33,121 bases of DNA from a virus, in the UHGV virus genome UHGV-0036156; one strand, written 5' to 3'. A model generated the notes under the pieces. The model saw only the letters and a program-made list of their open reading frames with translations, was not told the origin of the DNA and made no database searches. This document shows positions 8,928 through 27,659 of the stretch, one piece after another. Position 1 is the first letter of the stretch; the number at the start of each line of letters is the position of its first letter. Made by a program: the position numbers and the translations under genes.

Positions 8928-8979
8928 ACGCCCTCAATATTCTGTTGTGACGATAAAACGTTCATTACAGGAGGGCAAC

Positions 8980-9540
8980 ATGCCTGAGTTTTCCCCTGCA
9001 TTCCTTCATTCGCTGAATTTTGTTATACGGCCTGATGTTGAAGGTGGTTACGTTAATGATCCCACTGACCGTGGCGGCGAAACCAAATACGGCATTTCTG
9101 ACCGTCGCGACGGCGTTATTGATGGCAAAACCGATGTTAACGGTGACGGGAAGCCTGATACCCGTATTAAAGATTTAACCCACGAGCAGGCGGCGCAAAT
9201 CTACTGGCGTGATTACTGGCTGGCGGCAAAGTGTAACGAATGGCCTGATGGTGTTTCCTTATTCGTCTTTGATGCTGCCGTTCAGCACGGTGTTAAACGC
9301 GCAATTCAAATCCTCCAGGCGGCAGCAGGTGTTGATGATGATGGCATCGTCGGCAAAAACACTCGCGCAGCCGTACTGCGTGCCGATACTGACTGGCTGC
9401 TGTTGCAGTGTTTCCTGCGTCGTTCCCGCTATTACGCAGGGATTATCAAATCCAGTACCTCGCAGGGGAAATATCTGAACGGCTGGTTTAACCGTCTGGA
9501 TCTGCTCGCCAGCGCCTGCCGGGAGGTTCTGCATGGGTAA
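8980..9540 (+). CDS. Endolysin, glycoside hydrolase family 108 type
   Basis: N-terminal signature RPDVEGGYVNDPTDRGGETKYGI, longer C-terminal region. CAGGAGGG precedes the ATG at 8980; ORF track starts at an upstream GTG at 8947. Confidence 0.8.
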   Translation: MPEFSPAFLHSLNFVIRPDVEGGYVNDPTDRGGETKYGISDRRDGVIDGKTDVNGDGKPDTRIKDLTHEQAAQIYWRDYWLAAKCNEWPDGVSLFVFDAAVQHGVKRAIQILQAAAGVDDDGIVGKNTRAAVLRADTDWLLLQCFLRRSRYYAGIIKSSTSQGKYLNGWFNRLDLLASACREVLHG

Positions 9541-10256: not shown

Positions 10257-10667
10257 ATGACAAATCAGCAGGATTTATTTGAACATGATCCGGCTGTAAG
10301 CCAGTTAATGGATCATATCGACAATATACCGGCTCCTGAGCAGGAGGCCCGCTGGCCCCGCGCGCTGGTTGAGCTGGTTGACGTTCTGGAAACAGAACTG
10401 AAACGTCAGGGCGTGGATGATGCACGGAGCATAGCCCGTAAACAGGTGATGTCCTTATCATGGTTCCTGGGGGGGCGGCAGTATTACATCCCCCGGGGTG
10501 ATGCACTTCTGGCAGCGTTGCGGGATGATCTGATTTACTGCCAGTTTAACGGTCGGAACATAGAGGAGCTGCGGCGTGAACATCGTCTGTCACAACCGCA
10601 GATTTACAAGATTATTGCCCGGCAGAGAAAACTTCATTCACGGCGACATCAGCCCGATTTATTCTGA
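10257..10667 (+). CDS. C: C-like late-gene transcription activator (Mor/C family)
   Basis: 136 aa; paralogue of Mor with the same conserved motifs; sits upstream of the late operons. Confidence 0.85.
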   Translation: MTNQQDLFEHDPAVSQLMDHIDNIPAPEQEARWPRALVELVDVLETELKRQGVDDARSIARKQVMSLSWFLGGRQYYIPRGDALLAALRDDLIYCQFNGRNIEELRREHRLSQPQIYKIIARQRKLHSRRHQPDLF

Positions 10668-10698: not shown

Positions 10699-10740
10699 TG
10701 TTAATTAATAATAACCCCGTCTACAAATTCCCCTGAGTTA

Positions 10741-10769: not shown

Positions 10770-11198
10770 ATGAACGATTTTAAAAAACGTCTCCCCCGCA
10801 TCATCAGAACGCTTGCCATCGTGGTACTGGCGGCATGTGGTGGCTGGCAGTTGTCCGGCGATGGTGATTCATCGCTGGCTTCTGTTCAGTACCTTCCATA
10901 CACAGATCAGCACGGCGAACTGACTGTTTGCCTTAACCATCACGGTCCTGATATTCAGCAACGCCCTTACAGCTATGGTGAATGCATCATGCTGTTGAAA
11001 GCAGATTTGAAGCCTGTTTATGACACGTTAAATACCCATCTGAACAGGCCACTGACAGAGGAGCAAAAAAATGCACTGGCGGTGTTTATGTTCAGCGCCG
11101 GTTCTGGTGCTGTGCCCGCTCCCCGTAATAATCAGCTGCTGAATGATGATGTGTTACCGGTGCCGGGATTAATGCCGGGTATGTCGTCAGGGCTGTAA
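10770..11198 (+). CDS. Mu gp22-like lysozyme-fold protein (phage lysozyme family) with altered catalytic site, N-terminal SAR or lipoprotein-type signal
   Basis: YLPYTD...TVC...ECxxLLxxDL...ALxxFxFxxGxG aligns with P21 R-type SAR endolysins. N-terminus MNDFKKR + TLAIVVLAAC. Ala sits where the catalytic Glu is expected, and the protein is about 25 aa short at the C-terminus. Confidence 0.75.
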   Translation: MNDFKKRLPRIIRTLAIVVLAACGGWQLSGDGDSSLASVQYLPYTDQHGELTVCLNHHGPDIQQRPYSYGECIMLLKADLKPVYDTLNTHLNRPLTEEQKNALAVFMFSAGSGAVPAPRNNQLLNDDVLPVPGLMPGMSSGL

Positions 11199-16015: not shown

Positions 16016-17315
16016 TCTGGCGTATGCCGCACGCCTCCCGCCAAAGGAGGCTGTCGCGTATTTCCGCGCCAAAGGCTACAACATCACCTGGAACTGGTAC
16101 GAACAACTGGCAGACGCGCACGCCCGTGCCTTTACCGTTGCCAAAGCTGCCCGGATGGATGTCCTGACCACAATCCGTGAGGAAGTGGAGCGGGCTGTCA
16201 GTGAGGGTATCACCCGTGAGGAATTTACCCGCACACTGGCTCCCCGGTTGCAAAAGCTCGGATGGTGGGGAAAACAAATCATCGTGGATGCAGAGGGAAA
16301 CGCGAAGGAAATCGAACTGGGCAGTCCGCGTCGTCTGGCAACCATTTATAACGTCAATACCCGTACAGCGTACGGGGCGGGACGTTATGCACAGATGATG
16401 AATACCGCAGACCTGTATCCGTACTGGCAGTATGTCGCCGTTATGGACAGCAGAACGCGCCCGGAACATGCCCGGCTGCATAATATGATTTTCCGGTATG
16501 ACGATATTTTCTGGCAGACACATTACCCGCCCAATGGCTGGAGCTGTCGCTGCCGCGTTCGTGCGATATCTGCGGCCCGAATGAAAGAACTGGGATTACA
16601 GGTCAGCTATGGTGCTTCATTCATGGATACCCGCGAAGTGGAGGCCGGCACGGATGAAAGCACAGGAGAGATTTTCCGCACATCGTCAACCACGTTTGAC
16701 AACGGTCGGGTAAAAATGACGCCGGACGTTGGCTGGTCATATAACCCTGGTTCGGCGGCATTCGGTACTGATCAGGCGCTGATTCGAAAACTGGTGGAAG
16801 TTCGTGACGCGCAGCTGCGTGAGCAGGTTGTACAGACGCTGAATAACAGCCGGGAGCGCCAGCTTGCTTTTTCCCTGTGGCTTAATCGTCTGGCGAAATC
16901 ACGTCACGCCGGGCGTGAGATCCGGGCACTGGGTTTTATGACGGAATCGGTAGCTGAAGCCGTACATCAGCGCACCGGGAATATGCCAGCCCGTTTACTG
17001 GTGATGAATGGAGAAAGTCTGGCTACCGCTGCTGATGCTGCCCTGAAAGCAGAGGATTTACAGCGTCTGCCGTCTCTGATGGCAGAACCACAGGCGGTAT
17101 TGTGGGACAGAAAAAATCACCAGCTGCTGTACGTTGTGGCAACCCGTGACGGCACGGCCCAAATTGTGGTCAGAACATCACAGACAGTCGGCAGGCAGAA
17201 TGACCGGGCTGATGTGCTGGTCAGTATCAGCCGCGTATCTGCACAGTCGCTTGAAGCCGCGATTGCTGACGGGATGATTGACGTACTGGAAGGGCATGTG
17301 GAGGTGAATAAGTGA
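15960..17315 (+). CDS. Head morphogenesis protein (Mu F/gp30-like)
   Basis: 451-aa ORF; the likely start is the ATG at 15996 after a GGGGG stretch. Confidence 0.85.
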   Translation: MPFLLPIYGGVWMPQQTIDLAYAARLPPKEAVAYFRAKGYNITWNWYEQLADAHARAFTVAKAARMDVLTTIREEVERAVSEGITREEFTRTLAPRLQKLGWWGKQIIVDAEGNAKEIELGSPRRLATIYNVNTRTAYGAGRYAQMMNTADLYPYWQYVAVMDSRTRPEHARLHNMIFRYDDIFWQTHYPPNGWSCRCRVRAISAARMKELGLQVSYGASFMDTREVEAGTDESTGEIFRTSSTTFDNGRVKMTPDVGWSYNPGSAAFGTDQALIRKLVEVRDAQLREQVVQTLNNSRERQLAFSLWLNRLAKSRHAGREIRALGFMTESVAEAVHQRTGNMPARLLVMNGESLATAADAALKAEDLQRLPSLMAEPQAVLWDRKNHQLLYVVATRDGTAQIVVRTSQTVGRQNDRADVLVSISRVSAQSLEAAIADGMIDVLEGHVEVNK

Positions 17316-17782
17316 GTCTTGATATGAACGTTGCCGTGGATGTGCGACGTATCCGGCTTGCTCTTGATGATCTGGCAACGGTAACGCATGACGGATATGT
17401 GCCACGTGTGATGGCTGCGGCATTGCTGTCGTCTTCTGAACAGGCTTTTGAACGGCAGGCAGACCCGGACACGGGCCAGAGCTGGGAGTCATGGAGTGAC
17501 CCGTGGCTGGCATGGCGTCAGGAGCATGGTTTTGTTCCGGGTAGCATTCTTACCCTGCATGGCGATCTGGCCCGCAGCATCACTTCCGCTTACGGCCCGG
17601 ATTATGCCCTGATTGGCTCACCAAAAGTTTACGCTGCTATTCATCAGTGGGGCGGTAAGCCTGATATGCCCCCCGGTCCGGCAGGTGTTCCTGCACGTCC
17701 TTATATGGGGCTGGATAAGAGCGGTGAGCAGGAAATTTATGATGCCATCAGAAAACGCGTAAGCGCCGCTCTGACGCAGTAA
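17312..17782 (+). CDS. Virion morphogenesis protein (Mu G/gp31-like)
   Basis: 156 aa, overlaps the F stop; last gene before the central intergenic region. Confidence 0.75.
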   Translation: MSLDMNVAVDVRRIRLALDDLATVTHDGYVPRVMAAALLSSSEQAFERQADPDTGQSWESWSDPWLAWRQEHGFVPGSILTLHGDLARSITSAYGPDYALIGSPKVYAAIHQWGGKPDMPPGPAGVPARPYMGLDKSGEQEIYDAIRKRVSAALTQ

Positions 17783-17968
17783 CCAGATACAGAGATAAAA
17801 TCACGCGATAAAGAATTTTTGAAGGTTCTGTGGCGTTTTTGAAGGGGTTTTGAAGGGGGTAGCGTCATGCATTTCCCTTCCCCTTTATCTTTCTCCTGCA
17901 GAATTACTAAAACTGGATAACCCCGCCTTTTCTCCCGTTCCCCGCACACTGGCTACTCACAAATCACG
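17783..17968. promoter_or_regulatory. Central intergenic region: candidate late promoter and candidate strong gyrase site equivalent
   Basis: 186-bp non-coding gap between G-like and I-like genes, about 17.7 kb from the left end. Three direct copies of TTTTGAAGG (17816-17825, 17836-17845, 17848-17856); ATAACCCCG at 17917-17925. Confidence 0.4.
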
Positions 17969-19069
17969 ATGAGCAGGCCGGACATGAAAAAACACGCGAT
18001 TGGTATTGCTGCGCTGGGTGCGCTGTCCATTGACGATGACGGCTGGTGCCAGCTATTGCCTGCCGGTTATTTCAGTGCCCGTGACGGTCGCCCGTTTGAT
18101 GTAACAACCGGTCAGGGCTGGTTCATCGACGGAGAAATTGCCGGACGCCTGATTGAAGGTATCCGCGCACTTAACCAGGACGTGCTGATTGATTACGAGC
18201 ATAACCAGCTGCGTAAGGACAAAGGATTACCCCCGGAACAACTGGTCGCGGCTGGCTGGTTTAACGCCGATGAAATGCAGTGGCGTGAAGGTGAAGGGTT
18301 ATTTATCCACCCACGCTGGACAGCGGCAGCCCAGCAGCGCATCGATGACGGTGAATTTGGTTATCTCTCTGCGGTTTTTCCGTATGACACCGCCACTGGT
18401 GCGGTACTGCAAATCCGCCTTGCTGCGCTGACCAATGATCCCGGTGCCACCGGCATGAAAAAGCTGACCGCACTGGCGGCAGGCCTTCCCGACATCCTTC
18501 AACAGGAGAACAAACCCATGAATGAAACGCTGCGCAAGCTGCTTGCGCGTCTTGGGGTAACTGTCCCCGAAAATGCAGACATCACTGATGAACAGGCCAG
18601 CGCGGCCCTGAGTGCGCTTGATGCACTCGAAACAGATGCCGGAAAAGTGGCGTCGTTATCCGCCGAACTGGAAAAGGCACAGAAAGCCGCCGTTGACCTG
18701 ACGAAATACGTCCCGGTGGAAAGCTACAACGCCGTGCTTGATGAACTGGCTCAGGCCACCGCGCAAAGTGCCACCGCCAGCCTGAGCGCCGTTCTGGACA
18801 AGGCGGAACAGGAAGGCCGCATTTTCAAAAGCGAACGTGCCTATCTGGAACAGCTTGGCGGTCAGATTGGCGTGGCGGCACTGTCGGCACAGCTTGAGAA
18901 AAAACAGCCCATCGCTGCGTTATCTGCCATGCAGACCACAACGGTACAAAACCCGTCGCAGGAAAAACCGGCGGTGGCGGTGCTGTCTGCTGATGAAAAA
19001 GCAGCAGTGAAGGCGCTCGGCATTACTGAGGCTGAGTATCTGAAAATGAAACAGGAACAAGAAAAATGA
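17969..19069 (+). CDS. Head protease/scaffold protein (Mu I/gp32-like)
   Basis: 366 aa; N-terminal protease-like region and a C-terminal Ala/Glu/Lys-rich coiled-coil scaffold-like region. The ATG at 17984 may be the true start. Confidence 0.85.
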   Translation: MSRPDMKKHAIGIAALGALSIDDDGWCQLLPAGYFSARDGRPFDVTTGQGWFIDGEIAGRLIEGIRALNQDVLIDYEHNQLRKDKGLPPEQLVAAGWFNADEMQWREGEGLFIHPRWTAAAQQRIDDGEFGYLSAVFPYDTATGAVLQIRLAALTNDPGATGMKKLTALAAGLPDILQQENKPMNETLRKLLARLGVTVPENADITDEQASAALSALDALETDAGKVASLSAELEKAQKAAVDLTKYVPVESYNAVLDELAQATAQSATASLSAVLDKAEQEGRIFKSERAYLEQLGGQIGVAALSAQLEKKQPIAALSAMQTTTVQNPSQEKPAVAVLSADEKAAVKALGITEAEYLKMKQEQEK

Positions 19070-26171: not shown

Positions 26172-27659
26172 ATGTTTGAAGATGCTTTAAATGCCGTTAA
26201 TTCTGTCCGGGATAAAATCGGCGGTGGTAAGAAAACAACCGGCAAAGGCACGTTCCGTAACGTGCCGTTTCTCGTCATTGAGGAGCAAAAACAGGCTGGC
26301 GGACGTCGTCTGGTTAAACGCGAGTACCCGTTACGTGATACCGGCGGTGTCAATGACCTGGGGAAAAAACTTCGCTCCCGCACATTCAGCATCTGCATTC
26401 TGAACAGCAACGCAGAGACTGCCAGAGATGAAGCGGGTGCGTTGATGGATGCTCTTGATGCACCGGGCAGCGGCGAACTGGTGCATCCAGAGTTCGGCAC
26501 TGTGGACGTCATGGTGGATTCATGGGAATGCCGTACTAAAGCGGATGAACTGAATTATTACGCGTTCACCGTTACCGTTTATCCGTCGTTGCAGGATACA
26601 GCCCCGGACGCAGAAACAGACACCAGTACAGCCGTATCTGCGCAGGCCGTTGCTGTAACCGGTTCGCTGGGGGATACGTTGTCCTCTGTCTGGCAGACCG
26701 TAAAAGATGGCACAGCGGCGGCAACAGCCGTAATGGATGCCGTCACCGGTGTCATCGATGATATCTGTGATGCGGTGGATAATCTGGGGATCACCCAGAC
26801 TGTCAGCGGCCTGATGGGGTCACTTTCTGCAATGAAAGGTTCTGTGACCGGCCTGATAAATAAACCAGCCATGCTGACATCTTCACTGATGGGGGCGTTA
26901 TCCGGCGTTTCATCGTTATGCGATACCCGAACAGCATTTTCCACCTGGAACCGTCTGGCGCAGCGGTTCGAAAGCCGACATGCCTCCACCACTGACAGAC
27001 AAGGTGCCATTACCACTTCATACAGCAGCCCGGTTGCAGAAAAAAATATTGCCACACTGAACTACGTCATGCTGGCAGCAGCACAGACATACCGGGCGGA
27101 GGCAGCAAGCCAGGCACTGACTGCGGCACTGGATTCCAGCCGTCAGATGGATAATGCCGCCCGTGCACCGGCGCTGGATGTATCAGTCACAACAACCGGC
27201 ATCGCCAGTGGTGCCAGCAGCACATCGTCCACGGTCACACAAAGCCAGTTGCAGTTAACCGGGATAACCCCGGACGGCGGCTTTTCACCAGTATCCTTTT
27301 CAGACAGTAGCACAGCCACGCCCCCGGTATTTGAAAGCGTGTCCGATATCGAAAAAACAGCCGCCATGCTGGGGGCTGCACTGGATACCGTCATTCTGAC
27401 GGCATCTGAGCAGGGCTTTTCGACAGACAGCGTTCAGCTTACGCAACTGCGTCTGCTGGTTGTTGCCGACCTGGAAAAACGCGGGCTGCAACTGGCGGGC
27501 AGTGAAACGCACCGCCTGCCGGAGACGATGCCTGCAATGGTGGCCCTGTACCGTTACACAGGAAACAGCCGGAACTGGCAACGGCTGGCCCGCAGGAACG
27601 GTATCAGCAACCCGTTGTTTGTTCCCGGTGGTGTCAGTATTGAGGTGATTAATGAGTAA
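26172..27659 (+). CDS. DNA circularisation protein (Mu N/gp43-like)
   Basis: 495 aa, between tape measure and the baseplate hub as in Mu. Confidence 0.8.

Follow-up and report, generated by a model that had tools for sequence, protein, structure and literature searches.

The basis of the uniquely 'strong' gyrase site (SGS) of phage Mu is debated, phased bending, deformability and T-segment presentation all having been proposed, and to our knowledge only a handful of gyrase sites have been tested for SGS strength. Candidate SGSs were reportedly described in 2004 by Oram & Pato in the Mu-like prophages of E. coli O157:H7 Sakai, Haemophilus, Salmonella Typhi and Neisseria, where, as in this work, central sites of Mu-like prophages were taken as SGS counterparts. 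[quoted passage not shown] SGS function in Mu requires central placement, and most heterologous sites tried in Mu failed to substitute for it (PMC10052514); in that review the Sakai site is given as the only one that could replace the Mu SGS. Because most heterologous sites failed, homology to the SGS is no guarantee of site strength.

Gyrase sites in general have been described by Topo-Seq in E. coli, where thousands of cleavage sites yielded a gyrase motif of 130 bp, and the Mu SGS was the top-scoring site in Mu with the published matrix (Sutormin et al. 2019, PMC6379681). In the Mu records, the gap between genes G and I carries a gyrase cut site (17879/80), a predicted terminator (17908–17953) and the late promoter P_I (17977–18043). 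The Mu activator C binds a dyad centred at -43.5, so that its box overlaps the -35 region, in promoters that have a recognisable -10 and lack a -35 element (PMC2582627).

The window analysed here (the whole 33,121-nt stretch of UHGV virus genome UHGV-0036156) contains a counterpart of this gap. We assign a probability of about 0.8 to the reading that three TTTTGAAGG repeats within it form a variant right arm of a homologue of the Mu-type SGS, and that the locus is a predicted gyrase site. Judged from its sequence, the element is of a known kind but has a variant spelling, and it adjoins a known type of late promoter.

Extent and position of the G–I gap

The window represents a Mu-like prophage with ~98.5% identity to a prophage of E. 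coli SE11 and ~86–94% identity to Mu. The 1.2 kb surrounding the gap gave one unbroken ~86% match to Mu, D108, SfMu and relatives, and the E. coli SE11 chromosome contained a 100% match to the 186-bp gap as first delimited. The SE11 prophage comprises 36,652 bp and could be aligned end to end with Mu. In the window, the left end of the prophage is at position 77.

The original prediction described a sizeable non-coding gap, about 17.7 kb from the left end, between a G-like and an I-like gene. The identity of both neighbours was borne out: the upstream gene (17312–17782, + strand) encodes a G-like virion morphogenesis protein (PF05069, 3.2e-37) and is colinear with Mu G, and the downstream gene (17984–19069, + strand) encodes an I-like head maturation protease/scaffold protein (PF10123, 1.3e-96) with the same start as in Mu and in the RefSeq annotation of the SE11 relative. 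The distance from the left end was confirmed with the prophage end at window position 77, and no intergenic gap in the late region of the SE11 relative, as annotated, is larger than this one of 201 bp. Of the limits originally given, 17783–17968, the start stood and the end did not, the true end being 17983; the start codon of gene I in Mu, and in RefSeq for the SE11 relative, is the ATG homologous to 17984. Another ATG lies in frame at 17969, 15 nt upstream of the conserved gene I start, and led the mechanical ORF call to begin too early. The frame of this upstream ATG is not conserved with respect to Mu because of a 1-nt indel.

Comparison of the gap with the Mu gyrase site

The alignment with the Mu G–I intergenic region that had been suggested as a check showed the gap to be colinear with Mu 17860–18055 with no rearrangement, and the window aligned through the cut site, terminator and P_I annotations of Mu. 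The Mu cut is annotated 20 nt past the stop codon of G, and the homologous window position is 17802/17803. By homology, the cleavage core GATAA^AATC^ACGCG was located at 17794–17807 (+ strand), with predicted cuts after 17798 on the top strand and after 17802 on the bottom strand, giving a 4-bp stagger of AATC. The nine bases around the cut, ATAAAATCA, were identical in the window, Mu and D108. The left arm extends into the end of gene G, of which it takes up the last ~47 bp, and the complete predicted 130-bp gyrase footprint of left arm, core and right arm (motif positions -63 to +66) covers 17736–17865 (+ strand). A distance of 17,722 bp separates the predicted cut from the left end of the prophage. 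The site lies at 48.5% of the length of the SE11 relative, compared with 48.7% in Mu; this estimate of centrality rests on the length of the relative because the right end of the prophage is outside the window.

The three direct repeats reported originally are real, with exact TTTTGAAGG copies at 17817–17825, 17837–17845 and 17848–17856; the earlier coordinates 17816–17825 and 17836–17845 describe the same copies plus one leading T. Only four exact copies of TTTTGAAGG were present in the whole window (both strands), three of them inside 40 bp, and since a 9-mer would be expected to occur ~0.25 times without mismatch in 66 kb, this clustering is not due to chance. When up to one mismatch was allowed, 21 matches were found, against 9.2 +/- 3.4 in shuffled sequences. 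The right-arm block as a whole (17816–17861, + strand) consists of three phased units, TTTTTGAAGG / TTTTTGAAGG / TTTTGAAGG, whose TT[AG]AA cores are spaced 20 and 11 bp apart, with T-tracts at +18, +38 and +50 from the cut and the repeats spanning +18 to +58. Mu has TTTTTTAAAAC, ATTTTTAAACC and TATTTAACGG exactly at the positions of the three copies in the window, which indicates that the repeats occupy the right arm of the SGS, beginning 18 bp past the predicted top-strand cut. The pyrimidine-rich tract noted originally was also recovered: the 45 nt from +69 to +113 are 71% pyrimidine, which places them in the top 0.3% of the window, and the tract itself (~17872–17898, + strand) would lie in the distal right arm on the T-segment side.

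The window site therefore resembles the Mu SGS in being located between G and I at a central position, in having the same core around a 4-bp staggered cut, in possessing a right arm of three T/A-tract units in register followed by a pyrimidine-rich tract, and in its high gyrase-motif score. It differs in the sequence of the right arm. Although the flanking genes of the window and Mu are 84-98% identical, identity falls to 53% in exactly 17801–17900, and is 29/46 (63%) within the block, where the units read TTTTAAAAC, TTTTAAACC and TATTTAACG in Mu and TTTTGAAGG in the window. The rebuilt matrix described below scored the window site slightly above that of Mu (10.1 vs 9.3).

In order to score the site, a gyrase matrix was rebuilt by regressing the published site scores on the W3110 sequence (positions 1–276 kb; site table of PMC6379681). 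A symmetrised ridge approximation with two-fold symmetry imposed (606 sites, with the Mu SGS outside the training set) was adopted because exact recovery of the published matrix failed: a one-strand regression was inexact at every window placement and a max-of-two-strands model with an alternating fit overfitted. The symmetrised approximation was too noisy when built from 416 sites, as the Mu control had a median of 30 competitors across bootstraps, and acceptable with 606. Simple matching against the published gyrase consensus of 133 bp, whether by exact bases or by strong/weak pattern, had been dropped since the Mu positive control failed. The adopted matrix, which remains an approximation, reproduced the published scores with a cross-validated r of 0.87, and the fit left the coordinate convention unambiguous.

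With this approximate matrix, the best site in the 33 kb of the window was the predicted cut after 17798, which scored 10.06 compared with 8.6 for the runner-up, and in bootstraps the site ranked first in 137/200 and among the top 10 in 196/200. Scores as high were found at 1.5e-5 of W3110 positions, and at about one position in 136 kb of E. coli DNA that the model had not seen. In the Mu control, the known SGS ranked second rather than first with the rebuilt matrix. Its local maximum, after Mu 17875, is the top-strand partner of the annotated cut across the 4-bp stagger, also agrees with the centring of the published 133-bp SGS fragment, and falls on the same homologous nucleotide as the maximum in the window. 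[quoted passage not shown] Plain 10-11 bp A/T periodicity, scanned with a sliding 10–11.5 bp period, discriminated weakly, with the window arm in the top 1-3% and that of Mu in the top 1-5%. The window site shares the layout of the Topo-Seq motif, in which arms of ~10.75-bp periodic GC/AT content flank the cleavage region on either side over 130 bp, and the Topo-Seq consensus arm ccTTTAAgggggccTTTTgga resembles TTTTGAAGGGGTTTTGAAGGGGG in the window; the Topo-Seq motif, however, summarizes thousands of ordinary chromosomal sites, whereas the window site is an extreme scorer at a fixed phage position. Colinear alignment, the conserved core, the top motif site and the central position together uphold the proposal that the gap is the counterpart of the central SGS of Mu.

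The 133-bp Mu SGS fragment of Sutormin et al. was found to carry a G to C change at Mu 17881, next to the cut; the homologous window position, 17804, is also C. This fragment was amplified from pMP1000, which carries a nuB-mutant SGS (PMC6379681), and a comparison of the change at Mu 17881 with the published description of the nuB mutations found no match.

The putative right arm across Mu-like lineages

The 46-bp block at 17816–17861 was present with 93–98% identity in 46 other E. coli genomes. These copies belong to a second Mu-like lineage (B) that has another order of head genes, and lie just upstream of the protease gene, ~46% along the prophage. A scan of viral contigs revealed a third lineage (C), whose protease shares ~30% identity with those of the others. 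The block of lineages B and C agrees with that of the window at 40–44/46 positions (87–96%), whilst the proteases are only 24–31% identical. The best motif position was found 37–38 bp upstream of the second repeat (located by its 20-mer match) in the lineage of the window and in lineages B and C, and the cores differed. Sakai was absent among the 49 E. coli genomes carrying the block of the window; because Sakai lacks this block, the variant arm was probably not among the SGS candidates tested by Oram & Pato. A scan of species-representative genomes with the 20-mer gave 12 scattered matches, which were treated as chance since there were no Mu genes nearby.

As the viral-contig set had been found via the motif itself, a second survey was based on the protease protein. 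It recovered 80 loci (41–97% protein identity) with 40 distinct upstream sequences. In 34 of the 40 distinct loci, the 340 bp before the gene contain a stretch of 50 bp with three or more + strand TT[AG]AA units, compared with an expectation of 0.066 taken from the remainder of these loci (P~2e-34). The 34 loci carry 3–5 phased units, with spacings that are nearly all 10–11 or 20–21 bp, and the [20, 11] layout of the window was the commonest. The unit consensus was TTTAAACG, with TTTGAAGG as a minority spelling. In 12/40 loci the top site of the locus fell inside the gap, compared with 2.3 expected, as scored with a matrix trained on E. coli. The pyrimidine tract at +69 to +113 was likewise found family-wide, within the top 1% of the locus in 23/33.

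Conservation across this family also bears on the possibility, which we consider unlikely, that the main role of the repeats and the pyrimidine tract is to form the two arms of a rho-independent terminator, at which the late lys-to-G transcript would end before P_I. GAAGGGG from repeats 2-3 can pair with CCCUUCCCC, and the U-rich tail UAUCUUUCU follows, but the resulting hairpin (17840–17897, + strand; MFE -24.8 kcal/mol, z=-1.74) is weak, with z between -0.6 and -1.7, and leaves the first repeat outside; a terminator scan found nothing. Whilst the Mu record has a predicted terminator at the homologous place (z=-4.0), the family as a whole keeps the repeats and not the fold, the median z being -0.44 and a hairpin with a U-tail occurring in 6/38. 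Lineage B has a canonical terminator, which comes right after its block, and in several lineages a separate terminator is found downstream of the repeats. Because the fold is not conserved and several lineages have terminators of their own, termination is best taken as a possible secondary function that overlaps with the predicted gyrase site.

It is still less probable that the units are sites, on one face of the helix, for a sequence-specific phage or host protein other than gyrase. Conservation of the units goes further than A/T richness (of 118 units, 64% have C at +5 and 73% have G at +6), units within one arm resemble each other more than expected (likeness 0.60 vs 0.49 by chance, reached in 0/2000 shuffles), and the block is far better conserved than the proteases in lineages B and C, as would be expected if a protein read them. 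Host base composition may, however, contribute to the shared spelling within arms, and no such factor is present in the Mu literature examined (PMC10052514, PMC13284261). A sequence-specific reader is disfavoured because near-identical phages spell the units differently, with GAAGG in the window and AAAAC/AAACC/TAACG in Mu between flanking genes that are 84-98% identical. Furthermore, a matrix derived from chromosomal gyrase sites alone picks out the window site, and the published gyrase consensus arm already reads ccTTTAAgggggccTTTTgga. The variant right arm of a gyrase site thus remains the preferred reading of the repeats.

The GAAGG spelling was common to at least four lineages, with proteases 24-50% identical to that of the window. 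We tentatively raise the idea, which we hold to be possible and not probable, that the right arm of the SGS is a modular cassette that exists as 'alleles' (TTTAAACG, TTTGAAAC and TTTGAAGG), alike within an arm and exchanged or retained independently of the flanking genes, and that the spelling would carry sequence-specific information for gyrase or a partner. If so, the arms would contain information beyond generic bendability, and the window site might outdo that of Mu. Taken alone, the window is of little import, as a relative of Mu would be expected to possess a Mu-type central gyrase site and late promoter. The survey, by contrast, provides ~40 natural variants in a fixed order of core, 3–5 phased TTTRAAMSG units and pyrimidine tract, which differ in the spelling, number and spacing of the units, and the window and Mu offer nearly identical phages with different arms. 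Together these variants form a ready panel for swaps in Mu replication and for single-molecule work on gyrase.

Several further arrays were observed. In a fourth lineage (D; L052 1741-1915), which is a Mu-like phage inserted into Stx-converting phages, the right arm is of the Mu type, ATTTTCTAACCTGTATTTAACGGG; no top-five site of its locus fell in the gap of lineage D with the rebuilt matrix, and the site there may be weaker or degenerate. In the third lineage (L051 3268-3303; L041) the block ends ~8-13 nt before the start codon of the protease, which leaves no space for a promoter, and the final GAAGGGGG could also serve as a ribosome-binding site. Tandem TTTTGAAGGGG with an exact 11-bp period was found in unrelated viral or metagenomic contigs (L045 in two places, L018, L039 and L026/L035), in which a Mu-type F or I gene is not adjacent; L039 has distant F/I-like matches ~1-2 kb away.

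Predicted late promoter, proposed mechanism and remaining features

The late-promoter-like motif mentioned in the original prediction proved to be ATAACCCC at 17917–17924, within the homologue of Mu P_I. Three copies of ATAACCCC were present in the window, compared with 0.75 expected, and these were found only at 10711, 17917 and 27264, the homologous places of Mu P_lys, P_I and P_P. The copy at 10711-10718 lies just upstream of the lysis gene and that at 27264-27271 inside the N-like gene. The predicted C-dependent P_I homologue (17904–17970, + strand) aligns to Mu P_I 17977-18043, and comprises a C-box ending in ATAACCCCG (17917–17925) and a -10-like CACACT (17945–17950), with the same 28-nt spacing between box and -10 as in Mu P_I. 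By this alignment the C-activator box of P_I terminates in ATAACCCCG, and transcription would start near 17957. A search for sigma-70 consensus promoters found none. The predicted promoter and the C-dependent promoters of Mu (P_lys, P_I, P_P and P_mom) are alike in possessing a ATAACCCC box and a weak -10 and in lacking a -35; the -10 of P_I is CAAACT in Mu and CACACT in the window. As in Mu, a C-like activator is encoded upstream: the window encodes a Mor/C-family protein at 10257–10667, and in the SE11 relative such a gene directly precedes the lysis gene.

By homology to Mu, host DNA gyrase would bind the core GATAA^AATC^ACGC as its G-segment, and the DNA to the right would wrap around the GyrA C-terminal pinwheel, the three T-tract/GAAGG units lying on one face of the helix because they are 20 and 11 bp apart. 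The wrap would then offer the pyrimidine-rich DNA as T-segment, and in the middle of the ~36.6-kb prophage gyrase would thereby become exceptionally stable and processive. Supercoiling from this point might extrude a loop with the site at its apex, so that the prophage ends meet, and the paired ends would permit assembly of the transpososome and fast replicative transposition. Downstream, activator C would bind the box that ends in ATAACCCCG and allow transcription of gene I from ~17957. Cleavage by gyrase, its processivity, a part in replication and activity of the promoter are all suggested by analogy with Mu.

No convincing ORF had been seen in the gap originally, and this held, as none of its ORFs had a Pfam match and the best PHROG match had an E value of 0.058; a search of the gap against Rfam gave nothing up to E=1. 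The frequent insertion of anti-CRISPR genes at the G–I junction of Pseudomonas Mu-like phages had been added as a background remark and does not extend to this gap. The presence of a small hidden gene in the gap, whether anti-CRISPR or otherwise accessory, is accordingly very improbable: a 70-aa ORF (17737–17949, - strand) runs antisense into the end of gene G, a 40-aa ORF with a TTG start (17850–17972, + strand) is the other candidate, indels between the window and Mu disrupt the frames, the 42-aa 'gp31.5' annotated in the D108 gap begins at a non-standard ATC codon, and the SGS and promoter already account for the DNA of the gap. The D108 annotation (L003 789-917) spans the SGS of that phage and, because this stretch is the gyrase site, is probably an over-call.

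The window differs from the SE11 prophage in several regions. The flanking DNA at 1-76 is different, indicating another insertion site, the left end at 77-542 is just 84% identical to its SE11 counterpart, and 543-1563, the repressor/ner region, gave no megablast match. By these comparisons the window is an SE11-related prophage with another insertion site and another immunity region, and not the SE11 prophage itself. In the SE11 relative, two lysozyme-like genes are annotated, compared with a single endolysin in Mu. One, of the GH108 family, sits between the Mor-like and C-like activator genes, and the second glycoside hydrolase gene follows C; their positions are ~8947-9540 and 10770-11198 in the window (L004 11198-11758 and 12988-13416).
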